From Escherichia phage vB_EcoM-UFV11: DNA of 64,000 bases. Positions 9,601 through 21,798 of this stretch are shown here, piece after piece. Every line of letters begins with the position of its first letter. Positions within the stretch are counted from its first letter, which is position 1. Under the pieces are notes generated by a model. The model was not told the DNA's origin. It did no database searches and saw nothing but the letters and a program-made list of their open reading frames with translations. Made by a program: the position numbers and the translations under genes. Location: sequence record OP555982.1; one strand, written 5' to 3'.

Positions 9601-11414
9601 TGGTGTTTAACCCTATGCATGATTTCTTTATTTTTGCCGAGATTAAATCCGCGTTCGTTCGGATTTCCCAAATAACCACATGTTCTTCTTATTGTGTTCA
9701 TCTTTTTAGGATCAGTTTCTCCACAAATAGAACAAACAAATCCGTTTTCAGTAGGAGTCATTTCATGGGTACTTCCACATGTAAAACATTTATCTACTGG
9801 CATATTAACACCAAAATAATCTAAATGTTGTGCAGCATAATCCCATACGGCCTCAAGACCCTTTAAGTTATTTTTCATATCAGGAAGTTCAACATAAGAA
9901 ATGTGGCCGCCTGTCGCAATGAAATGATATGGTGCTTCGCGAGAAATCTTTTCAAACGGAGTAATATTTTCTTCTACTGAAACATGGAAACTGTTAGTGT
10001 ACCAACCTTTATCGGTAACATCCTTTACACTTCCATATTTTTCGGTATCAAGTTTACAGAAGCGATAACAAAGGTTTTCAGCAGGAGTAGAATACAAACT
10101 AAAAGCAAACCCAGTTCTTTCAGTCCACTGTTTAAGACGAGCATTCATTTTAGTTAAAATTTCCTGTCCAATATCACGACCGACAAGAATATTCAATTCG
10201 TGAATACCAATGTATCCTAGAGACACTGAACTTCTGCCATTTTTAAATAACTCAATTATATCGTCATCAGGTTTAAGACGAACCCCGAATGCACCTTCTT
10301 GATAAAGAATAGGAGCAACAGTCGCTTTAACTCCTTTTAAGGAACTAATTCTACACATCAAAGCTTCAAAACATAAATCCATTCGTTCATTGAATAATTC
10401 AACAAATTTCTGTTCATTGAACTGTGTTCCAATATAAGAATCTAATGCGATACGAGGAAGATTCAGTGTTACAACACCGAGATTATTACGTCCATCAAGA
10501 ATTTCATTGCCAGTCGAATCTTTCCATACGCTCAAGAAACTACGACAACCCATTGGAGAAACAGGAATAGATGAGCCGGTGATAGCTTTATTGTTCTTAG
10601 CCGAAATAATATCAGGATACATTCTTTTGCTTGCGCACTCTAGAGCAAGCTGTTTAATATCATAGTTCGGATCGTCTTTATAAAGATTAACACCTTCTTC
10701 AACGAACATAACAAGCTTAGGGAAAATAGGAGTTATCCCATCACGACCAAGACCTTTAATACGATTTTTCAGAATTGCTTTCTGAATCATTCGTTCAGTC
10801 CAGTCAGTTCCTGTACCAAATGTAATTGTTACAAAAGGTGTTTGTCCGTTTGAGCTAAAGAGAGTATTTACTTCATATTCATAAGCTTGGAATGCATCGT
10901 ATACATCTTTTTCTGTTTTAGATTGAGCATAATTCAACGCATCAGCGATTTGCCATTTTTCTGCATCCTCAATATGTTTTGCATAGGTGCGTTTAACATA
11001 AGGAGAAAGTACTTTATCTACATTAGCAAAAGTCGTTCCGCCGTATTGATGGGAAGCAACCTGTGCAGTAATTTGTGCCATAATTGCAGTAGCAACACCG
11101 ATTGATTTAGGAGTTTCAATCTGTGCATTACCAAGCTTAAATCCGTTCTCAAGCATTCCTTTTAAATCTACTAAACAACAATTAGTAAATGGAAGAGCAG
11201 GGGAATAATCAATATCGTGGAAATGAATAATTCCGCTTTCATGCGCTTTCATAATAAAAGACGGGACCATATTTTTGGCAATGTGTTTAGACACAATACC
11301 AGCCATAAGGTCCCGTTGAGTTGGAAAAACACGAGAATCTTTATTAGCATTCTCGTTTAAAAGGTCTTTATTAGTTTTATGAATCAATCCTTCAATTTCT
11401 TTTTCAATTGTCAT
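9597..11414 (-). CDS. nrdD: anaerobic ribonucleoside-triphosphate reductase (glycyl radical enzyme), uninterrupted
   Basis: 605 aa; C-terminal glycyl-radical motif RRTCGYLG and Zn-ribbon CFTCGS...CSICG; continuous ORF (no intron). Confidence 0.95.
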   Translation of the reverse strand: MTIEKEIEGLIHKTNKDLLNENANKDSRVFPTQRDLMAGIVSKHIAKNMVPSFIMKAHESGIIHFHDIDYSPALPFTNCCLVDLKGMLENGFKLGNAQIETPKSIGVATAIMAQITAQVASHQYGGTTFANVDKVLSPYVKRTYAKHIEDAEKWQIADALNYAQSKTEKDVYDAFQAYEYEVNTLFSSNGQTPFVTITFGTGTDWTERMIQKAILKNRIKGLGRDGITPIFPKLVMFVEEGVNLYKDDPNYDIKQLALECASKRMYPDIISAKNNKAITGSSIPVSPMGCRSFLSVWKDSTGNEILDGRNNLGVVTLNLPRIALDSYIGTQFNEQKFVELFNERMDLCFEALMCRISSLKGVKATVAPILYQEGAFGVRLKPDDDIIELFKNGRSSVSLGYIGIHELNILVGRDIGQEILTKMNARLKQWTERTGFAFSLYSTPAENLCYRFCKLDTEKYGSVKDVTDKGWYTNSFHVSVEENITPFEKISREAPYHFIATGGHISYVELPDMKNNLKGLEAVWDYAAQHLDYFGVNMPVDKCFTCGSTHEMTPTENGFVCSICGETDPKKMNTIRRTCGYLGNPNERGFNLGKNKEIMHRVKHQ

Positions 11415-12992: not shown

Positions 12993-13175
12993 TTTTCACC
13001 AATTAATTTCGCAATTTATTAAGTTCTTCATCATCAATCCAGGATTCTAATCCTGATGGCAGGGCACATTCAATTTCCCAAAGAAGTTCTTCAATTTTCT
13101 GAAGACGATCTAGTTCTTCGGCTGGAATAGTAACCATTGACGGAGCTCGTGATACATTAATATCGTAAATCATAT

Positions 13176-13391
13176 TTACCCCAATTTAACCATACAATCG
13201 CCGTATTTCCACTTAGAAATAGACTTTTCACCATTAGAATAATAAACTTCGAGTTTAGCACGATTATTTTTAATTTGAATAACCTTTGCTGTCATCAAAG
13301 TTCCATACCCATAATAAACTGCAACTTCATCACCTACATATACCGCGCTTCCGCGGTAATCATGGATATAATCAGTTCCTTCGAGAATCAT
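13176..13391 (-). CDS. hypothetical protein
   Basis: 71-aa ORF; a further 55-aa coupled ORF follows at about 13006-13173. Confidence 0.5.
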   Translation of the reverse strand: MILEGTDYIHDYRGSAVYVGDEVAVYYGYGTLMTAKVIQIKNNRAKLEVYYSNGEKSISKWKYGDCMVKLG

Positions 13392-13651
13392 TTAAAGTAT
13401 TCTCGCAGTTGGTCAAATCCACCAATATGACTTCCATCAGGAGCAAATACCTGAGGCATTGTCAAGCCGATTTGAGTATCACGACTTAGTTTAGTCAGAA
13501 GCTCAGCGATTTTCTCATCATCAAAAACACCTTTTTCCGGCATAATGTTGATAAATTCAAACGGCTGTTTCTTCACGGTCAAAAGACGTTTTGCATTATC
13601 ACAATACACACATTTATGGATGTTGCTATCATAACCATATAATTTAAACAT
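13388..13651 (-). CDS. nrdC: thioredoxin/glutaredoxin for ribonucleotide reductase
   Basis: 87 aa; CVYC redox site; matches T4 NrdC nearly residue for residue as recalled. Confidence 0.9.
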   Translation of the reverse strand: MFKLYGYDSNIHKCVYCDNAKRLLTVKKQPFEFINIMPEKGVFDDEKIAELLTKLSRDTQIGLTMPQVFAPDGSHIGGFDQLREYFK

Positions 13652-13652
13652 A

Positions 13653-13931
13653 TTATTCCTTAATTCCTAGTACTTGTTTAAAAGTCTCGTCGTAATCAAG
13701 ACTTTGGCCCGTTTGTTCTTTATGTTTGTATATAATATCACTTACTTCTGATAGCATATTTTTATATGAACGAGTTAAAGCAGATTTAAGCACGCTGTAT
13801 CTATCAGGAAATTTACCGTGTTCATTATAATAAGCTATTGCTAATTCACGGACTGCCTTTTCAGCAGCCTCCATATATTCTTTACGCTTGGTCATTTTAA
13901 TCCAAAATATTATTAGGCATTGGTTGAACAC
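13653..13931 (-). CDS. hypothetical protein (nrdC.1-like; start possibly at 13895)
   Basis: 92-aa ORF overlapping upstream gene; internal Met avoids the overlap. Confidence 0.5.
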
Positions 13932-14286
13932 TCACAAGTTCTTTAAAGAACTCAGTAGAGTCAGGCAATTTAACCATTTCCGGAGCATGCTTACTGAATT
14001 TATGTTTACATTGACGGCATTTATATTCAAGCTCTGGTTTACGCCAGTTAATCAATTGAACTTGTTCAGTACCGCATTCAGGGCAATTAGGAACGTTTTT
14101 AGAAGCTCTTTCACGTCGTTCAACCATAGCCATAATAGCATCCCATGCTGGAGGTTTAAAATCTAAATCGTCGCAGCCGTGAATCTTTCCACGCATTTCC
14201 ATATCATCTTCCTCACCAGCCATAATAATTTTAATTAGACTAGAATTACTTGAAGCTGCAATGTCTTCTAATAAACGCTTTTTCAT
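13897..14286 (-). CDS. zinc-ribbon hypothetical protein
   Basis: 129 aa; CPECG...CRQCKHK four-cysteine ribbon. Confidence 0.55.
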
Positions 14287-15209
14287 TTCAATACCTCAAT
14301 AGCATTACGTAAACCATTTGCTTTTGCGTTAAGAGATTTTAACAATTTGGTGTGTTCTGCAATTTGGGCTTCAACTTCAATCAAACGGGCATTGAGATAT
14401 TCGCGTTCTTCTTTCATAGTATCATTCCCATGATTGGGTTTTGGTGCAGATTTAAATTCACTAGGGTCCTTTAACTTAATAACAAATTTAGTTTCAAACA
14501 GTGAAAGACCATAATTCGTATTATCATCAAAGGATTTAACTACATCCATATTAGATAATAACTCATGCAAATTATAAGACAAAGAACTAATAGTTTCATT
14601 GTGTTTATTAGCTTCGCGTGGTTTCATATACGGAAGATTTTTATATATCTCATGCGGAGCACAAATGATAATTGACAATTCAAATTGTCCATTCTGGGAC
14701 GATGGAGTGAATTTAGCCGTAACCCAGTCTTTTACATTCACATTAATAGTACGGTTATCACCATGACAAAACAATCTACGAGAATGCTTAAAAAGCATAT
14801 TCACGTTATTATTGAATTCGTGTGAAAATTCACTGGCAAATTTTTCTTTACTATCTTTAGAAAACCATTCTTCTAAATAAGTTCTTTTCACGTCGTTAAT
14901 AATATTAAATGTAACAACATTAGCATTTGATACATTAGTCTCAATGTAGCTTGGATACATAAATTTTTTAACATTATTAACAGCTATCACAGAAGATAGT
15001 AATCGGGAACGTTTGAACCACTCGAGCAAAGAACCAAGAGAATGTGAATACGCGTTTTGCGTATCTTTACAAATATGGTTTTCCCATCCAATATAGTCTA
15101 AAAAATCACGAAGAATATTATTGATTACTGCTCTGTGTCCTATCTGATAATTACGATGTTTAGTAATAAGACTGTCAAAATAATCAATATAATGTTTACG
15201 AGTTTTCAT
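14283..15209 (-). CDS. paralog-family protein A (N-terminal globular domain + C-terminal coiled coil)
   Basis: 308 aa; C-terminal ~45-aa heptad-like helix [42 protein letters not shown]. Confidence 0.6.
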   Translation of the reverse strand: MKTRKHYIDYFDSLITKHRNYQIGHRAVINNILRDFLDYIGWENHICKDTQNAYSHSLGSLLEWFKRSRLLSSVIAVNNVKKFMYPSYIETNVSNANVVTFNIINDVKRTYLEEWFSKDSKEKFASEFSHEFNNNVNMLFKHSRRLFCHGDNRTINVNVKDWVTAKFTPSSQNGQFELSIIICAPHEIYKNLPYMKPREANKHNETISSLSYNLHELLSNMDVVKSFDDNTNYGLSLFETKFVIKLKDPSEFKSAPKPNHGNDTMKEEREYLNARLIEVEAQIAEHTKLLKSLNAKANGLRNAIEVLK

Positions 15210-15263
15210 GTTCTTCTCACTTGGTTAATGATTTATACTCCGAGCCATCCTTGGCTTTAAATT

Positions 15264-16265
15264 TTACTTAATTAACTGTAAAGCTTGTTCAAGACGATCA
15301 AGACGATTAACGGATTCTTCCCAAATCTTTTTAGCCTTCTCATATTCTTTCTGTGCTTTATTAGAAATTTCTAGAGCTCCTTTATAAGCTTTTTCTAATG
15401 CAATAATTTCTGGACGAATTTCTACCGGTTCAGGCGAATCATCAAGATTATCCATTAGTTCCTCAAGGGTAGTTTCTTCTTTAGGGGTATTCACAATTTC
15501 TTCGCATTTTTGTTGGTAAATTTCTTTATCAGTCGGTGAATACGCACATTTCACTTCACGAAGACTAACTACAATTTTGTATCCTTCCCAACCACACATA
15601 TTCTTAAAAGGATATGTATGAATATTTTCTACTGTTTCCATACAAAGTAATGCAGTCTCTAACTGACGAGTTATAGTGCTAGCAATTGAGAAAAATTTAT
15701 TAATATTCTTTTGGTTAGCGTTTGGTGTAAAAAATCCATAATTCACAAAAATAGCTACTTTATTTTCGTCAAGCTCATATTCTTTTACGATAATCATATC
15801 AGAAGCCAAAGGATGAATTTGACGATAATCGCCATAACATAATTTAGAAGCTGATTTTAGAATTTGTCCTTTGAAAAGTCTGAAATTACTAATCCAACGA
15901 CGAGTAAAAATATTCTCAGGGTCTTCTTTATTATTAAGATGATAAGAATTAACATCACCGAACCAATTGTATCCTACTACATTTTTAGTTCGTTTAATTT
16001 CTTTCCCAAATTTACCAAGAATATCTCTGTTAACTAAATATGAAAGAAGACGAGACCCTTTAAAGGTTTCCTTAATATCATCTTTATCTGCACGACTAGA
16101 AATTTTATGAACTTCATGAATAAATTTGCTGGAAGAAACAATGCTTGCATCAGTATTATTGAGCCATTGATTGATAATAGAAATAACACTATTCTGACTA
16201 GACATAGGTTTAACTTTATCATCAATAACGCTATTGAATGATTTGATATATTCGTTGCGAGTCAT
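15264..16265 (-). CDS. paralog-family protein B (C-terminal coiled coil)
   Basis: 333 aa from MTRNEY; GAGGAG Shine-Dalgarno; ORF-track extension to 16295 reads through the promoter. Confidence 0.6.
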   Translation of the reverse strand: MTRNEYIKSFNSVIDDKVKPMSSQNSVISIINQWLNNTDASIVSSSKFIHEVHKISSRADKDDIKETFKGSRLLSYLVNRDILGKFGKEIKRTKNVVGYNWFGDVNSYHLNNKEDPENIFTRRWISNFRLFKGQILKSASKLCYGDYRQIHPLASDMIIVKEYELDENKVAIFVNYGFFTPNANQKNINKFFSIASTITRQLETALLCMETVENIHTYPFKNMCGWEGYKIVVSLREVKCAYSPTDKEIYQQKCEEIVNTPKEETTLEELMDNLDDSPEPVEIRPEIIALEKAYKGALEISNKAQKEYEKAKKIWEESVNRLDRLEQALQLIK

Positions 16266-16293
16266 ATTAATCTCCTCAGTAGAAAGTAAGAAC

Positions 16294-16323
16294 ATTATAC
16301 CACATCCTTGTGGCGAAGTAAAC
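16294..16323 (-). promoter_or_regulatory. T4-type early promoter (GTTTAC-N18-TATAAT)
   Basis: minus strand GTTTAC 16323..16318, TATAAT 16299..16294; palindromic spacer CCACAAGGATGTGG. Confidence 0.6.
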
Positions 16324-17342
16324 TAGTTTAGTGCATTTAGTGCATTGTTCAATTTAGAACGTTGCTTTGTCAGATTTTGAACCCTTGACTGAGCTTGTTC
16401 TAACACCTTTTCAGCTTCTAGCACTTCATTGGTCGCTTTAATGAGTTCAGCATCTACTGCCTTAAGAGACTTCTCAATCGCGTCAGCGTGCCATTTTTCT
16501 ACAGGTTTAAAATTTGAATTTTCAGTAGGAAGAAAATTCACTTTATTAAATTTCCATGCATCTTTATTACCTGAGCTATACATCCAAAATTTAGGATCGT
16601 TTGATGAGCAATTAGATAAATTTAAGTTATCTTGTACTTCCTGCTTTTTCTCTTGCGGGACTTCATCCTTTCTCAAAAAATCGTATTTAAATGAAACGAT
16701 CATATCAAGTTCATACGTTGTTGTATGTTCCCAATTTCGCTCAAAATGAGGTAAAATCTTAGACTGAACAGCGGCAACAACATCCATATACTTAAATGCT
16801 TCTGTCAACTGTGATTTAAGGCATTCACAAATTGAAAGAGAATTTTTTGTATTAGGCTTAAAGCTAATTCGTGCAGTTCTATTATTTTCTTTTAACGGTC
16901 TTACTTCCATCTGAAGAGTATAACCATCAAATTTCAGGTTCTTTAAGTTAATGTCAGAACCTTTTAATCGACTAGCAGTAGACAAAATTTGCTTTAATTG
17001 TTTACGGAATAAAGCAATAAATCTCCATTCAAGACGATAATGATTTGGATTAAAAAATCCTGTTGATAAATCAACCTTACTCTGACCAACGCCTTGAACA
17101 AATAGAGGATTTTTATAATCAATAGTTTTACAGAAATCGGTGAGCTGCTCACGAGCAGTCATTTGTGTAATATATCCCGCTTTACTAAAATGACGTAACC
17201 ATTCACTGCTATTCATATACTTAAAGTGAATGGAACTATTAACTCTATCAGGGTCTAAATTATTTTGGCACAAAAATGTCATAACATTACGGGTATAGCT
17301 AGCATTACGAACCATATCTTCAATTTGAGAACGAGTTTTCAT
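16323..17342 (-). CDS. paralog-family protein C (C-terminal coiled coil)
   Basis: 339 aa; starts MKTR like protein A; C-terminal helix KAVDAELIKATNEVLEAEKVLEQAQSRVQNL. Confidence 0.6.
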   Translation of the reverse strand: MKTRSQIEDMVRNASYTRNVMTFLCQNNLDPDRVNSSIHFKYMNSSEWLRHFSKAGYITQMTAREQLTDFCKTIDYKNPLFVQGVGQSKVDLSTGFFNPNHYRLEWRFIALFRKQLKQILSTASRLKGSDINLKNLKFDGYTLQMEVRPLKENNRTARISFKPNTKNSLSICECLKSQLTEAFKYMDVVAAVQSKILPHFERNWEHTTTYELDMIVSFKYDFLRKDEVPQEKKQEVQDNLNLSNCSSNDPKFWMYSSGNKDAWKFNKVNFLPTENSNFKPVEKWHADAIEKSLKAVDAELIKATNEVLEAEKVLEQAQSRVQNLTKQRSKLNNALNALN

Positions 17343-17350
17343 AGTGTTCC

Positions 17351-18259
17351 TTAAGATTTAAGTAAATCAACAATTTTAATTAATTTTTCACGCTCAGATT
17401 TAGCTTTACTACTCAATCCAGATAGTCTGAAAATTTCATCGTCATACTGTTGAATAGAAATATTTAGCTCTTCAATTTGCTTATTAAAATAATCAATTTG
17501 CTCAGAATGTTTTTCATTACTGCGAACTGGTATAGGGTTTGTAGGCAATTTAGTTGAACTAGATTCATCCGGGCGATAAATTAAAATACAACTTGAACCA
17601 ATTGGACATTTTGCACCAGATGAATATTCTAATGTTCCGGCTTCTTTTAAAACTTCAAAAGCTAAACAGAGATGATGCCCCATATTAACATAATCTGTAG
17701 AGCGAGCTCTGATGTAATAATCATCTCCGCGAATACTAAATTTAAAGCATTTAAGGTCTTCTGTATTATTGGTCTTAAAAATCATTTGTTTATCTAGACC
17801 TTTAGCTAATCGAGCGCCTAATGCTAATAATCGTCGTTGATTTTCCCACAAATCTGCGATCATTTGGTCAAATGATAATTTCGGCATTAGTCGACCATAA
17901 AGGTCATATCCTTTATTATAATTACGAAGGATTTCACTCGCGTTAATACGAGACAATGCTCCAATTTTATTAAGGGCTTTCATAATGCGATTAGATAAAC
18001 CCATTCCAGACCCGTTTGTTCGCTGCAAATGTTTTTCTAATCCAAATCCAATATCAACTTTAAACTTATCTAAAATTTCTGCATGAACATCTCTGTCAAT
18101 AACATTCAAATCCAAAGTTGGGTTAAATCTATGAAAAAATTTATCTGGCTCTCCACGACGAAGTACAGTCCATTCATTCATTTTTTTATTAACTAAAGAT
18201 TTAATTACTGTATTGACATTATTAATTACTACTGACATATTTTCCTCACTCAATTTCAA
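17351..18259 (-). CDS. paralog-family protein D (C-terminal coiled coil)
   Basis: 302 aa; C-terminal helix EQIDYFNKQIEELNISIQQYDDEIFRL. Confidence 0.6.
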   Translation of the reverse strand: MKLSEENMSVVINNVNTVIKSLVNKKMNEWTVLRRGEPDKFFHRFNPTLDLNVIDRDVHAEILDKFKVDIGFGLEKHLQRTNGSGMGLSNRIMKALNKIGALSRINASEILRNYNKGYDLYGRLMPKLSFDQMIADLWENQRRLLALGARLAKGLDKQMIFKTNNTEDLKCFKFSIRGDDYYIRARSTDYVNMGHHLCLAFEVLKEAGTLEYSSGAKCPIGSSCILIYRPDESSSTKLPTNPIPVRSNEKHSEQIDYFNKQIEELNISIQQYDDEIFRLSGLSSKAKSEREKLIKIVDLLKS

Positions 18260-18653
18260 TTTTACTAAATATACAGAATATGATGGAAAAGACTATATAA
18301 GCACCACAAACAGATTGAACTAATACCATTCCAAAGAACCAAACAATATTATCAAACCATGTCTGTTTTACGTCGAAAGGACGTAAACTTACAGTAATAT
18401 TATCACCTTTTTCTATTGAAGAATACATCTCTGGGGAAATATATTCACTAAATCTATAACCGTCTTTGAGTTCATATACAGCAATAAACGATAAACTAGA
18501 CCCCTTTCCTTGTGTTCCTGTAATAGTATTAACTACAGTAACATCATAATCTTTATAATGCATATAATCATTAATTGCGTAATAACCATATGCAACTACT
18601 ACACATAAACAACATATCAATAAATTCAATCTTTTAATTATCAACTGTTTCAT
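18246..18653 (-). CDS. membrane protein (2 predicted TM helices)
   Basis: 135 aa; hydrophobic segments LLICCLCVVVAYGYYAI and FFGMVLVQSVCGAYIVFSIIFCIF. Confidence 0.55.
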   Translation of the reverse strand: MKQLIIKRLNLLICCLCVVVAYGYYAINDYMHYKDYDVTVVNTITGTQGKGSSLSFIAVYELKDGYRFSEYISPEMYSSIEKGDNITVSLRPFDVKQTWFDNIVWFFGMVLVQSVCGAYIVFSIIFCIFSKIEIE

Positions 18654-18708
18654 AATAATCTCAATTAAAAGGGCTTAGAACCATTATACCATCCTTGGTA
18701 TAAAGCGG

Positions 18709-19236
18709 TTATGCGAGTACCGTCTTTAACCGTTCTTCAAACTTCCGAAGAGTATTCTGGCGTTCAGCTCTTTGCTTTTTGTAAGTTTCAATACGCTCTG
18801 AAATGAGAGTGTATCGTTCATTTACTGATTCTTTCATAAAATCAGGAATTTCACGAGAAGCTTTAATCTCGTCAAATTTATCAATAACAGCTTGCTCTTC
18901 AGCAATTAAGTTATCATACATCAAAATATCTTTCTTGATGAACTCAATATCTTCTTGAGTTACACGAGATAATTTAAATGCTTTATCCTTTTTGTACTGT
19001 TCGTTAGTATCACGAGACCAGTGTAATGTACGATTTTTATTCGTATTCTTATAAATTTCTACAATACCAATATCATCAATAATAACGATCCAATTCCAAC
19101 GGGATTTGTAAATTTGTCCTCCATCAACTGTGATTTCACCTCCGATTGAGATGTCATTAAAGAACTTGCTTTGTGCTTCTGATTTAAATTTACCATCGTT
19201 GTAATTTACCAAGTTGAAAATATCTTTAGCGTTCAT
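18709..19236 (-). CDS. hypothetical protein (175 aa)
   Basis: ATG MNAKDIF at 19236; ORF-track extension to 19296 is read-through of the promoter. Confidence 0.55.
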   Translation of the reverse strand: MNAKDIFNLVNYNDGKFKSEAQSKFFNDISIGGEITVDGGQIYKSRWNWIVIIDDIGIVEIYKNTNKNRTLHWSRDTNEQYKKDKAFKLSRVTQEDIEFIKKDILMYDNLIAEEQAVIDKFDEIKASREIPDFMKESVNERYTLISERIETYKKQRAERQNTLRKFEERLKTVLA

Positions 19237-19264
19237 TTTCTGTTCCTCCGTAGTTGATAGTTGT

Positions 19265-19294
19265 ATAGTACCACAGAGGAACAGTCTTGTAAAC
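19265..19294 (-). promoter_or_regulatory. T4-type early promoter (GTTTAC-N18-TACTAT)
   Basis: GTTTAC 19294..19289, TACTAT 19270..19265; conserved leader block caactatcaac downstream. Confidence 0.55.
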
Positions 19295-19296
19295 AA

Positions 19297-19611
19297 CTAA
19301 AAGAAACTTCTTTCACAATTTTTTCCACTGAACCACGCGCTCACTGCTTTCTTAGTCTCAGGAGCAGTGTTATCCATAAACCATTCAAAGGCAGCCTTTT
19401 TATGATTCTGGAGGGCTTCTCGGGCTTTAATCTGCTCACGGTCTATTAACACTAACATATGAGCCTTTCTTGTCACCATGGGCTTCTTATGATTTTTTGA
19501 ATATTCCCAATCATTTGTCCATCGCATCGTTGTTGCGAATTGAAGTACAGCTTCTTTAATTTTAGTTTCGTAAATTTCACGAGCCTTTGAGTATAACATT
19601 ACTACCTCCAT
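19297..19611 (-). CDS. hypothetical protein
   Basis: 104-aa ORF. Confidence 0.5.
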   Translation of the reverse strand: MEVVMLYSKAREIYETKIKEAVLQFATTMRWTNDWEYSKNHKKPMVTRKAHMLVLIDREQIKAREALQNHKKAAFEWFMDNTAPETKKAVSAWFSGKNCERSFF

Positions 19612-19700
19612 TTACCAGTTTAATTCTAGTCATCTTTTTGATGGCAGTCCATATAATCTATTTCTGAACTGCCTTTTTATCTTAGAAGGCCTCTTATGAA

Positions 19701-20669
19701 TTATTTCAGAAGAGTAACCTCAGCGATTTCTTCCCAACCGTTTTTGTCGGTCATAATAAAGTCAGCAAGATAAAGAGCAGTACGCAGTGAAACATTGCGT
19801 AAACGATTAACATTGACTTTCATCCATGATAATGCTTTATAAGTTTCTTCATCAGAAAGACCGCGCTTTTGCATCATGTCAGTTGAAAGAATAACATCTT
19901 CAACCCTGACCATAATTTCTTCATTAGTGTGAACACCCAAATCCAAATAAACTGAGCGGGACACTAATGCTTGTAAATGTGGAGCAAGTTTAGTACCACG
20001 GTCTAATTCGCGGTCAATGTCAACGTTTGTGATAAAAACAATCGTTCCTTTAAATTCAAACTCACGCTCAATGCCTTTTTCTTCTAAGTAAGAAGATGCA
20101 GTGCTCCAGCAGACTTTACGGGTCTCTCCAGTGTCCAGAGCAGCTTTCAGAAGATTAAGAATGTCCATATCAGAGAAAACATCCACATCATCAATCAAAA
20201 GGACAGAATTCTCTTCACGATTATTCCAAAGCTGCTCATAAAGACCAATACCAGAGATTTTACCATTAATGCTTTTATATTCAATGTATCCAATATCATT
20301 TGCTTTATTTAAAGCTTTATCTAAAGAATACGTTTTACCAATACCCGCCGCACCAGAGATAATTAATGAACGAATGTTTCCGTTAATAATACCATTCGTC
20401 ATCATTCCCATAACATTAAATCTTTTATTAATGCGGGTTTTCATATCTTCATATGATTCTTTAACTTCTTCAACTTTTACACCATCATATGAAATGTCTG
20501 ATTTGTAAACCCAAACACCGCGACGTTTACCGTCAATTTCAACAAAAACTTTACCATCTCCTTGTGCATCTACTGGGGCATTATCAGGGAACCACTCACC
20601 TAAGAGTTCAAAAGTTCCAGAGATTTCTTTGCCAAAGTAGATACCCTTATTGATAGTTACAGTTTTCAT
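19701..20669 (-). CDS. AAA+/P-loop ATPase
   Basis: 322 aa from MKTVTINKG; Walker A GAAGIGKT, Walker B VLLIDDVD, sensor-like FITN; own early promoter upstream. Confidence 0.65.
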   Translation of the reverse strand: MKTVTINKGIYFGKEISGTFELLGEWFPDNAPVDAQGDGKVFVEIDGKRRGVWVYKSDISYDGVKVEEVKESYEDMKTRINKRFNVMGMMTNGIINGNIRSLIISGAAGIGKTYSLDKALNKANDIGYIEYKSINGKISGIGLYEQLWNNREENSVLLIDDVDVFSDMDILNLLKAALDTGETRKVCWSTASSYLEEKGIEREFEFKGTIVFITNVDIDRELDRGTKLAPHLQALVSRSVYLDLGVHTNEEIMVRVEDVILSTDMMQKRGLSDEETYKALSWMKVNVNRLRNVSLRTALYLADFIMTDKNGWEEIAEVTLLK

Positions 20670-20703
20670 TTTATTCTCCAAATCCGTATCAGTTGATAGT
20701 TGT

Positions 20704-20733
20704 ATAGTACCATAAAGCTTTATGCTTGTAAAC
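20704..20733 (-). promoter_or_regulatory. T4-type early promoter (GTTTAC-N18-TACTAT)
   Basis: GTTTAC 20733..20728, TACTAT 20709..20704; drives the AAA+ gene. Confidence 0.55.
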
Positions 20734-20764
20734 TGTTTTGTGAAAAAATTTTTGAAATAAAAAA

Positions 20765-20782
20765 GGGAGCCCGAAGGCTCCC
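20765..20782 (-). terminator. intrinsic terminator (GGGAGCC-UUCG-GGCUCCC + U-tract)
   Basis: gggagcccgaaggctccc perfect 7-bp stem, followed on the minus strand by UUUUUUAUUU; 3 nt after the nucleotidyltransferase stop. Confidence 0.65.
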
Positions 20783-20784
20783 TA

Positions 20785-21798
20785 TCATTTATAATAACTT
20801 CGGTGGTTTTCAAGATAGACCTTCTCAAGGAAGTCATCCCAGAAACCCATGTCTACTTTTTGCTGCATACCGTTCTTAGAAGCTTCAGTAGATGCTGCTT
20901 CTACTTGATCGACCACATCTTCCAAAAACTCTTGAACTGTTTTAAATGGATGTTTACCCAACTTCACGTCGAGAATAAATGGAGCGTCTTGAAGTGGATA
21001 AACTAAGTCACCAGTTTTGTAAATTTCCAATAGTTGAAGTCCACCACGACAGGCATGGCTCAGAGCTTTCCAGTCAATACCTTCATTGGCTTCGGCCTTA
21101 CGAGCACGTTCACCATATTCAGCATCTAATTTGTTCAGTGACTGCTTAAGCTCAATAAGAGAAAGCGTTGTCTGATATTTACGACCCAACACAGTGTAGA
21201 ACGTTTGTGGGCCTGTTTTCTCATGATTATGGAACACCCATTCACAGAATTCGTTTTCTGGAAGACGATGCTTAATATCTTCAATTTTAGTGCGACGTTG
21301 TCCTTGTGTTCCATCTTCTCGGTAGACATTCCGTTGATCAGGAATTTGATTAACTACTTTCAACACATCACGTAATGCAGCCAAACGAGAACCCTTGACA
21401 CCGTATTTAGAAGCTTGCTTGCGAACATATCCTAAATAGGATTTCATGTTAGTCGTATAAAAACGAGAACGATTGTCTTGAATAAACTTCCACACATCAG
21501 GCAAATCAGATTTAACCACTAGTTCAGGTGGAGTGTGAAGCATATCCAATGCTACAGTTTCACCATCTGCTGCTAATTTAAAGAAATACTTAAGACTATA
21601 CAATTCGTGGTCAATATCATCTTTAGTGTTTTTAGATGATGTGTTGTTAGTGTTTTTACTCATGTGCTCTTTGACATTTCCAATAAGAATATCGCGAGCA
21701 GGAGGAACAAAGATTTCTTTAAAATCTACATCAGATTCTGGAGTAGAAGTTCCATAAAGATGACTACCAAAATAGCTTTTCATTACTGTTTTCATCAT
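20785..21798 (-). CDS. Pol-beta-superfamily nucleotidyltransferase with helical C-terminal domain
   Basis: 337 aa; N-terminal GSHLYGTSTPESDVDF (G[GS]-x9-13-DhD) plus downstream acidic strand VALDML; ATG overlaps stop of upstream TM gene (ATGA). Confidence 0.6.
   Translation of the reverse strand: MMKTVMKSYFGSHLYGTSTPESDVDFKEIFVPPARDILIGNVKEHMSKNTNNTSSKNTKDDIDHELYSLKYFFKLAADGETVALDMLHTPPELVVKSDLPDVWKFIQDNRSRFYTTNMKSYLGYVRKQASKYGVKGSRLAALRDVLKVVNQIPDQRNVYREDGTQGQRRTKIEDIKHRLPENEFCEWVFHNHEKTGPQTFYTVLGRKYQTTLSLIELKQSLNKLDAEYGERARKAEANEGIDWKALSHACRGGLQLLEIYKTGDLVYPLQDAPFILDVKLGKHPFKTVQEFLEDVVDQVEAASTEASKNGMQQKVDMGFWDDFLEKVYLENHRSYYK

Follow-up and report, generated by a model that had tools for sequence, protein, structure and literature searches.

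Four neighbouring genes of the nrdC region in a T4-like coliphage: probable tandem duplicates and candidate anti-defence proteins

T4 is the reference lytic phage, yet four of its early proteins, of 35–40 kDa each, are still recorded as 'hypothetical' or, wrongly, as 'thioredoxin'. Their orthologues lie side by side in Escherichia phage vB_EcoM-UFV11, on the minus strand of the 64,000-nucleotide stretch of sequence record OP555982.1 that was analysed here (hereafter the window), and they are named nrdC.3, nrdC.4, nrdC.5 and nrdC.6 after the T4, RB3 and KMB42 records. What are these four proteins to one another, and what do they do for the phage that carries them? An earlier note on this DNA, made from the sequence alone, had taken them for a tandem paralogous family with a role in host interaction or exclusion. 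We lean, by a modest degree, towards reading nrdC.3–nrdC.6 as diverged tandem duplicates of one ancestral gene, which would form an array of anti-defence proteins that share a scaffold and are expressed early. The four genes are already known, one of them with a published function, and the four-way relationship adds modestly to this. What is added is that three separate Pfam families of 'unknown function' are probably one superfamily that includes NrdC.5, together with revised starts for nrdC.4 and nrdC.6, the exchange of a central cassette in nrdC.3, and a conserved early promoter before nrdC.4. The four genes are as follows, with lengths in amino acids (aa), predicted local distance difference test scores (pLDDT) of AlphaFold2 models, and ratios of non-synonymous to synonymous substitution (dN/dS).

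14283–15209, minus strand: nrdC.3 orthologue, 308 aa; Y04O/P family in UniProt style; PF26897; phrog_1435; dN/dS 0.24–0.37
15264–16265, minus strand: nrdC.4 orthologue, 333 aa, corrected start; PF26897; phrog_1435; AlphaFold2 model with pLDDT 80.8
16323–17342, minus strand: nrdC.5 orthologue, 339 aa; PF23882; phrog_2351; T4 orthologue counters Dsr1
17351–18238, minus strand: nrdC.6 orthologue, 295 aa, corrected start; PF26899; phrog_2257; AlphaFold2 model with pLDDT 78; dN/dS about 0.05

Identity and kinship of the four genes

The 4.7 kb around the four genes is identical (100% of the DNA) to Escherichia phage vB_EcoM-UFV09 and has matches in 508 phage records, almost all of which bear the name of a T4-like coliphage and several hundred of which show 90–96% DNA identity; the window phage is a Tequatrovirus. 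The array is flanked by nrdC.2 and nrdC on one side and by nrdC.7–nrdC.11 on the other, and in amino acid sequence its proteins are 90% (nrdC.3), 90% (nrdC.4) and 92% (nrdC.5) identical to those of T4, and nrdC.6 is 97% identical to that of RB3. The four consecutive open reading frames (ORFs) of 300–340 aa described in the earlier note were found on the minus strand as it had said, and it was right that T4 has ORFs of 35–40 kDa in its nrdC region and that the four might be conserved orphans: these are known, annotated T4 genes and not new ones. Each protein is a full-length member of an existing family. Thus, nrdC.3 and nrdC.4 match phrog_1435 (E 8.7e-100 and 2.6e-167), and PF26897 (Phage_T4_Y04OP) is carried by all nrdC.4 homologues; nrdC.5 matches PF23882 (DUF7235) over residues 1–339 (E 9.1e-119, 396.9 bits against a cut-off of 30) and belongs to phrog_2351; nrdC.6 matches phrog_2257 over residues 8–302 of its 302-aa ORF (E 1.1e-152), and all 105 of its homologues carry PF26899 (Phage_T4_Y05B). 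The databases treat PF26897, PF23882 and PF26899 (PHROGs 1435, 2351 and 2257) as three unrelated families of unknown function, whereas the evidence given below suggests that they belong together.

The closest pair is nrdC.3 and nrdC.4, which find each other in BLASTP (E 1.9e-4) and in profile–profile alignment with hhalign (98.3% probability, P 2e-14), and which share both phrog_1435 and the Pfam family name Phage_T4_Y04OP; to judge from their sequences, the two are certainly paralogous. The profile of nrdC.5 aligns with that of nrdC.3/4 over 138 columns (P 7e-6), with enlarged, more diverse profiles over 250 collinear columns (90.2% probability, P 1.5e-6), and still at P 2.5e-5 when the coiled coil described below is removed, while controls with reversed and block-shuffled templates never fell below P 0.025. 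Hidden Markov models (HMMs) built without the coiled coil and run against 98 ORFs of the window gave the same picture from both sides, the best non-self match of the nrdC.3/4 model being nrdC.5 and the two best non-self matches of the nrdC.5 model being nrdC.4 and nrdC.3. The paralogy of nrdC.5 with nrdC.3/4 is well supported by these profile comparisons, and we consider the homology of nrdC.3, nrdC.4 and nrdC.5 very likely. At the N-terminus, the MKTR beginning that the earlier note had seen in two proteins is present in nrdC.3 and nrdC.5; nrdC.4 begins MTRNEY and Dhakavirus nrdC.5-like proteins begin MNIKTRKEY, so that a motif M(K)TR.EY is common to three of the four families, nrdC.3, nrdC.4 and nrdC.5.

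The fourth gene, nrdC.6, aligns with nrdC.5 at P 3.7e-4 to 8.5e-3, with controls at 0.053 or above. The three independent pairwise profile alignments are mutually consistent at 46 of the 51 testable positions, and they bring two motifs into register. Motif 1 reads FKGSRLLSYLVNRDIL..F in nrdC.4, FSKAGYITQMTAREQL..F in nrdC.5 and LNKIGALSRINASEIL..Y in nrdC.6; motif 2 reads W..F..QILKSASKL.YGD, W.F..F..QILSTASRLKGSD and W.NQRRLLALGARLAKGLD in the same order. Both motifs lie in a conserved core, which in nrdC.4 has the lowest column entropy of its family and is the site of the hhalign matches to nrdC.5 and nrdC.6, and which in nrdC.6 is better conserved than any other block of the family.

15816–16085, minus strand: conserved core of nrdC.4, aa 61–150; motif 1 FKGSRLLSYLVNRDIL..F and motif 2 W..F..QILKSASKL.YGD
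16953–17210, minus strand: conserved core of nrdC.5, aa 45–130; FSKAGYITQMTAREQLTDF and W.FIALFRKQLKQILSTASRLKGSD; in register with the cores of nrdC.4 and nrdC.6
17789–17995, minus strand: conserved core of nrdC.6, aa 82–150; LNKIGALSRINASEILRNYNKGYDLYGR and W.NQRRLLALGARLAKGLD; in register with nrdC.5 and nrdC.4

Structure modelling with AlphaFold2 covered nrdC.4 and nrdC.6. The secondary-structure states assigned by DSSP to the two models agree at 79 of 108 aligned positions, compared with 31–62 when the alignment is shifted, and their secondary structure is collinear from end to end (global score 196.5 against a null of 97 +/- 36). In Foldseek searches of BFVD, the two models share five targets (E 1e-7 to 1e-2, template modelling scores of 0.2–0.5), among them proteins of Pectobacterium phage PM2 (E 5.8e-7 for nrdC.4 and 1.2e-6 for nrdC.6), Enterobacter phage IME523 (2.3e-7 and 3.1e-6), Acinetobacter phage Acj9 (4.3e-6 and 8.3e-5) and Erwinia phage Cronus (3.3e-5 and 4.6e-4), and the nrdC.6 model also matches nrdC.3 of fPS-65 (E 9e-3). 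The significant matches are uncharacterised Straboviridae proteins of 300–370 aa and not generic coiled coils. The sequence signal for nrdC.6 is weak; the agreement of the alignments, the secondary structure of the models and the shared Foldseek matches support its place with the other three, which we regard as probable. Homology of all four, judged as a whole, appears likely. The tandem family proposed in the earlier note is in this way demonstrable by profile alignment for nrdC.3, nrdC.4 and nrdC.5, and probable for nrdC.6.

C-terminal helices, family breadth and divergence

The earlier note had all four proteins ending in an amphipathic, heptad-like helix of about 45 aa, and in this the shuffle test, the pattern in the family alignments and the models agree. 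When the best 28-residue heptad window of each protein was compared with 200 whole-protein shuffles, it lay at the C-terminus in all four, and its score was reached by 3 (nrdC.3), 5 (nrdC.4), 0 (nrdC.5) and 10 (nrdC.6) of the 200 shuffles. Within the family alignments, hydrophobic residues are concentrated at a and d as opposed to the other heptad positions (0.79 vs 0.24 in nrdC.3, 0.80 vs 0.26 in nrdC.4, 0.94 vs 0.22 in nrdC.5 and 0.73 vs 0.23 in nrdC.6), and one register runs unbroken over 48–56 residues and is kept across each alignment. In sequence, all four proteins show what is expected of coiled-coil proteins: heptads that continue without a break, are hydrophobic at a and d, and recur in the homologues. 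AlphaFold2 gives the C-terminus of nrdC.4 as one helix of 48 residues (285–332) and that of nrdC.6 as two (242–271 and 277–294), and a similar tip, L..A[LI]..L[KN], closes all four proteins. It is most likely that the C-terminal heptad helix, as read from the sequences, makes each protein a dimer or a higher oligomer. The segments concerned are these.

14286–14426, minus strand: C-terminal coiled-coil segment of nrdC.3, aa ~262–308; best heptad window from aa 278
15267–15413, minus strand: C-terminal coiled-coil segment of nrdC.4, aa 285–333; AlphaFold2 helix 285–332
16326–16493, minus strand: C-terminal coiled-coil segment of nrdC.5, aa ~284–339; best heptad window from aa 283
17354–17515, minus strand: C-terminal coiled-coil segment of nrdC.6, aa 242–295; break at SGLSS

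The neighbouring nrdC.8 (18709–19236, 175 aa), with its long charged C-terminal helix, was considered as a fifth, truncated member and rejected: its heptad score was reached by 59 of 200 shuffles, and hhalign gave P 0.048 or above against every family.

The C-terminal segment of nrdC.6 is also where the T4 reference (NC_000866, about 10060–10100) departs from the window. Relative to window positions 17351–17470, T4 carries a 1-nt deletion (gagct-gatatt against gagctaaatatt), by which the T4 frame shifts near residue 258, the annotated protein is shortened to 275 aa and most of the coiled coil is lost. The RB3 and KMB42 genes are annotated at 295 aa. Because the T4 DNA past the deletion is still almost identical, the deletion is either a recent mutation of the laboratory strain or a sequencing error.

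Beyond the window, the family is narrow. When 1.84 billion representatives were searched exhaustively with the nrdC.3/4 HMM, only 10 proteins came back, each of the same family, and no distant relatives. In tblastn searches of phage records, nrdC.3-like sequences occurred in 656 and nrdC.5-like sequences in 580, and the neighbour nrdC.11 in 1503. The array has four members in Tequatrovirus, three in Mosigvirus, which lacks the nrdC.4 type, three in Dhakavirus and Gaprivervirus, which lack the nrdC.3 type, and one in Gelderlandvirus, Jiaodavirus and Karamvirus. In each of these last three genera the gene lies at the same place, upstream of nrdC.2, and encodes a protein of about 325 aa with a heptad tail. 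The nrdC.3/4 profile is matched by the protein of Jiaodavirus (P 1e-5) and the nrdC.6 profile by that of Karamvirus (P 4.7e-6), while the best subfamily match of the syntenic single protein of Salmonella phage S16 (P 0.0033) is not convincing. The probable superfamily also takes in the uncharacterised 300–370-aa proteins of Karamvirus, Jiaodavirus, and the Pectobacterium, Erwinia, Serratia and Acinetobacter T4-like phages.

The region had been described as hypervariable and diverging, and this stands in part: divergence between genera is fast, but gene content within Tequatrovirus is not hypervariable, 461 of the 508 matching records covering at least 80% of the 4.7 kb. Between genera, nrdC.11 remains 78–82% identical, compared with identities down to 56% for nrdC.3, 46% for nrdC.4, 32–49% for nrdC.6 and 22–25% for nrdC.5. 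The comparison of dN/dS across related phages that the earlier note had called for gave, within Tequatrovirus, 0.14–0.37 for nrdC.3–5 and about 0.05 for nrdC.6, most neighbours lying at about 0.05–0.15; nrdC.3–5 evolve at two to four times the rate of their neighbours. These ratios mean that selection on all four genes is purifying, and that in nrdC.3–5 it is relaxed or in part diversifying.

Among phage records, nrdC.3 falls into two allele classes, of at least 90% and of about 62% identity. Compared with RB3, the window protein is 90–100% identical over aa 1–60 and over its last ~30 aa, 70% identical in the block 61–80, and 30–60% identical per 20-residue block in its centre (aa 75–262), and the RB3 centre in turn is mostly 75–95% identical per block (range 55–95%) to that of Mosigvirus ST0. 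The ends of nrdC.3 are conserved, its centre is divergent and the RB3 centre is Mosigvirus-like, and therefore a central cassette has been exchanged between genera.

14424–14987, minus strand: exchanged central cassette of nrdC.3, aa 75–262, the beta-rich part of the globular domain

A similar division appears in the nrdC.4 and nrdC.6 families, in which conservation is highest in the coiled coil and the helices of motif 1 (for nrdC.6, in motif 2 as well) and the beta-rich parts are among the most variable. Rearranged forms occur as well. Two metagenome contigs (L010, 3570–4900, and L011, 1931–3261) carry a T4-like variant in which nrdC.4 is deleted; a 115-aa ORF stands at the N-terminal position of nrdC.5 and is followed by a 299-aa nrdC.5::nrdC.3 chimera, made of nrdC.5 aa 146–272 and nrdC.3 from about aa 134, with the junction at a short VN microhomology. 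An nrdC.5-like gene is split into two ORFs in Shigella phage SP18 (L014, 2456–3360), and nrdC.6 of Shigella phage Sf25 is lengthened to 378 aa by a tandem duplication of residues 176–258 (83 aa). These natural deletion, split and duplication variants show an array in flux.

Expression, function and competing explanations

T4 early promoters are characterised by the -35 box GTTTAC. This sequence occurs in the gap between nrdC.5 and nrdC.4, as part of a promoter-like sequence that matches the consensus at 10 of 12 positions and has in addition an upstream TG extension.

16294–16322, minus strand: T4-early-type promoter for nrdC.4; GTTTACT, 17-nt spacer, TGnTATAAT

T4, RB3 and KMB42 show 97% identity over the 91 nt around it, which take in the intergenic spacer and the gene ends on either side, and neither hexamer varies among these phages. 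Over the whole region, promoter-like matches are not enriched, 25 having been found where shuffles predict 28.8, and because such matches are no commoner than in shuffles, what speaks for this promoter is where it lies, the T4-early type of its -35 box and its conservation. The earlier claim that one gene has an early promoter of its own, at 16294–16323, is borne out to this extent, in that a conserved sequence of the T4 early type precedes nrdC.4. Together with the description of nrdC.5 as an early gene by Srikant et al. (PMC9391042), this putative promoter points to early expression of the array.

The role in host interaction or exclusion suggested by the earlier note fits what has been published on one of the four genes. 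Srikant, Guegler & Laub (eLife 2022, PMC9391042) describe a T4 clone with compensatory deletions that no longer plated on ECOR17 and that regained plating when dsr1 was deleted from this host; dsr1 cloned from ECOR17 protected MG1655 against the deletion clone, and plasmid-borne T4 nrdC.5 restored infection of MG1655 carrying dsr1. The deleted T4 genes are dispensable on MG1655, where the deletion phage is viable (PMC9391042). The anti-Dsr1 activity was shown for the T4 protein only, in one assay; the window gene at 16323–17342 is orthologous to it, being 92% identical in amino acids and having the same genes beside it. According to a 2026 preprint (PMC12803255), a phage major capsid protein acts as the trigger for the TPR sensor domain of Dsr1. 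No literature on nrdC.3, nrdC.4 or nrdC.6, or on the mechanism of NrdC.5, was found beyond the 2022 paper and incidental mentions; scans of Pfam, NCBIfam and PADLOC gave no enzymatic or defence-system domain in the four proteins, and profile searches of the Protein Data Bank (PDB) with all three family alignments gave no related solved structure.

We propose one common design for the proteins: a helical N-terminal region with the two conserved motifs, an alpha/beta sandwich that is beta-rich and more variable, and at the C-terminus a conserved heptad helix of ~45–55 residues. Each paralogue would bind and neutralise a host immunity protein, or a variant of such a protein, other than those targeted by its sister proteins; specificity would come from the variable beta-rich globular part, and the coiled coil would give oligomeric avidity or a shared scaffold. 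For NrdC.5 the target would be Dsr1, and the simplest mode of action would be direct binding, as with DSAD1 and DSR2. In this scheme the anti-defence role of nrdC.3, nrdC.4 and nrdC.6, the direct binding and the oligomerisation through coiled coils are inferred. A more far-reaching version, which we advance tentatively, sees nrdC.3–nrdC.6 as a multi-specificity battery, in which the helical module and the coiled coil hold an exchangeable beta-rich 'specificity cassette', the one already swapped between genera in nrdC.3, and each paralogue or allele disarms a different immune sensor or effector; were this true, Dsr1 would be only the first target found. Bolder still would be to take the cassette for a tail-terminator-like decoy of a virion protein. 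No counter to the Dsr1 sirtuin defence is known other than NrdC.5, and the link to it makes nrdC.3, nrdC.4 and nrdC.6 specific candidates for anti-defence screens, in which the swapped central cassette is the likely carrier of specificity, and the two helix motifs with the coiled coil are the likely common machinery.

Known systems offer partial parallels. DSAD1 of SPbeta-like phages is reported to counter a SIR2 NADase defence (NAD, nicotinamide adenine dinucleotide) by direct binding, the mode proposed for NrdC.5; its target is DSR2 and not Dsr1, it comes from another phage group, and the analogy is functional only. The T4 internal proteins IPI, IPII and IPIII and the dmd-tifA-adfA 'anti-TA island' (TA, toxin–antitoxin) are likewise non-essential, fast-evolving T-even clusters in which each product acts against a different host defence, and genes of both clusters were lost in the same compensatory deletions (PMC9391042). 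Their proteins are, however, small and unrelated in sequence, and the internal proteins are carried inside the phage head; the nrdC array, by contrast, has an early-type promoter before nrdC.4 and no capsid-targeting sequence.

Several observations weigh against the reading of the array as four duplicates with an anti-defence role. The comparison of nrdC.6 with nrdC.3/4 gives hhalign P 0.038–0.039, which is not significant alone and lies barely outside the shuffled range; the top Foldseek lists for the nrdC.4 and nrdC.6 models contain no entry named nrdC.5; and neither nrdC.5-like nor nrdC.6-like proteins were among the matches of the nrdC.3/4 profile in the 1.84 billion representatives. Gene-wide positive selection, as judged by dN/dS within Tequatrovirus, was seen in none of the four genes, and nrdC.6 is so strongly constrained in the genus that it is less like an arms-race gene, which is the main observation that fits the anti-defence picture poorly. 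Functional data exist for nrdC.5 only, and they are genetic and come from one host system. A narrower account would keep only nrdC.3, nrdC.4 and probably nrdC.5 as paralogues and leave nrdC.6 unrelated, sharing size, position and a C-terminal amphipathic helix with them by chance. The borderline P against nrdC.3/4 suits this account, as do the very different selective regime of nrdC.6 and the result of its HMM without the coiled coil, whose top matches in the 98 window ORFs include neither nrdC.3 nor nrdC.4 nor nrdC.5. We nevertheless think it improbable, in view of the concordance of the pairwise alignments, the separation of the nrdC.5–nrdC.6 match from its controls, the same order of secondary structure in the two models, and shared BFVD targets, the matches being to equally long proteins of Straboviridae only.

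The four proteins could also be host-takeover or housekeeping accessory factors, for instance inhibitors or adaptors of ordinary host proteins, as the product of the nearby pin gene inhibits Lon, with the effect of nrdC.5 on Dsr1 being indirect. Genes for host takeover and nucleotide metabolism, pin, nrdC, nrdD and endonuclease VII among them, do lie in the surrounding region, nrdC.6 is highly conserved, the evidence relating NrdC.5 to Dsr1 is genetic, and other phage counters to NAD-depleting defences (NARP1/2) are reported to be indirect, rebuilding NAD+. This explanation is nonetheless rather unlikely, since the genes are dispensable on MG1655, the family is limited to a few hundred closely related phages and to only 10 cluster representatives among 1.84 billion, its divergence between genera is extreme compared with that of the neighbours, and no enzymatic domain or motif was seen in Pfam, NCBIfam, PADLOC or the PDB. 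The globular domain might alternatively have a fold like that of tail-terminator or tail-completion proteins and serve as an early-made decoy of a virion protein, occupying or mis-triggering defence sensors that respond to structural proteins of phages. Membership of the tail-terminator family (lambda gpU-like) was considered and rejected, and the resemblance is kept only as a fold-level lead. Tail terminators and tail completion proteins are late, structural proteins of ~130–180 aa that form hexameric rings, whereas the array proteins have 300–340 aa with extra helical and coiled-coil parts, come from the early region and show no sequence similarity to them; we consider a decoy of this kind very improbable. 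An array of duplicated anti-defence proteins is the explanation that we prefer to these rivals.

Gene starts and neighbouring genes

The longest ORFs would give nrdC.4 343 aa (15264–16295) and nrdC.6 302 aa (17351–18259), and in both cases a shorter version is adopted here. The 343-aa version of nrdC.4 was rejected in favour of the annotated start, as its ATG at 16295 falls within the -10 box of the promoter; the start is taken as the ATG at 16265, which has a Shine–Dalgarno sequence GAGGAG at 16277–16272, and the resulting 333 aa agree with the T4 annotation. The 302-aa version of nrdC.6 was dropped for the ATG at 18238 with an upstream Shine–Dalgarno sequence GAGGAA, and its 295 aa agree with the RB3 annotation. 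The Shine–Dalgarno sequence of nrdC.5, AAGGAA, overlaps the stop codon of nrdC.6. In the spacer between nrdC.4 and nrdC.3 (15225–15262, minus strand), a small hairpin, AGCC-AAGGAT-GGCT, is followed by TATAAAT, which resembles the core of a T4 late promoter.

The product name 'thioredoxin', which many GenBank records give to nrdC.3–nrdC.6, is to be rejected, as these proteins have no thioredoxin or glutaredoxin match in Pfam or NCBIfam, and no thioredoxin-fold match was found in the scanned proteins nrdC.2–nrdC.8. In many phage records, the whole series nrdC.1 to nrdC.11 (window 13388–21798) is called 'thioredoxin', although the name holds for nrdC alone; it is an error of propagation, taken over from the gene name of the neighbour nrdC. 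On the side of the array away from nrdC.2 lies nrdC.7 (18246–18653), whose T4 orthologue is annotated in the T4 record as a predicted membrane protein. On the other side, nrdC.2 (window 13897–14286) encodes a zinc-ribbon protein of 129 aa, as in KMB42, with a C-terminus unlike that of the 104-aa T4/RB3 version and 25 aa longer. Further along, at window 13003–13391, two small ORFs stand where T4 has gene 49.3, one of them identical to RB3_083, which the RB3 record calls an antitoxin, and the other nearly identical to RB3_084.

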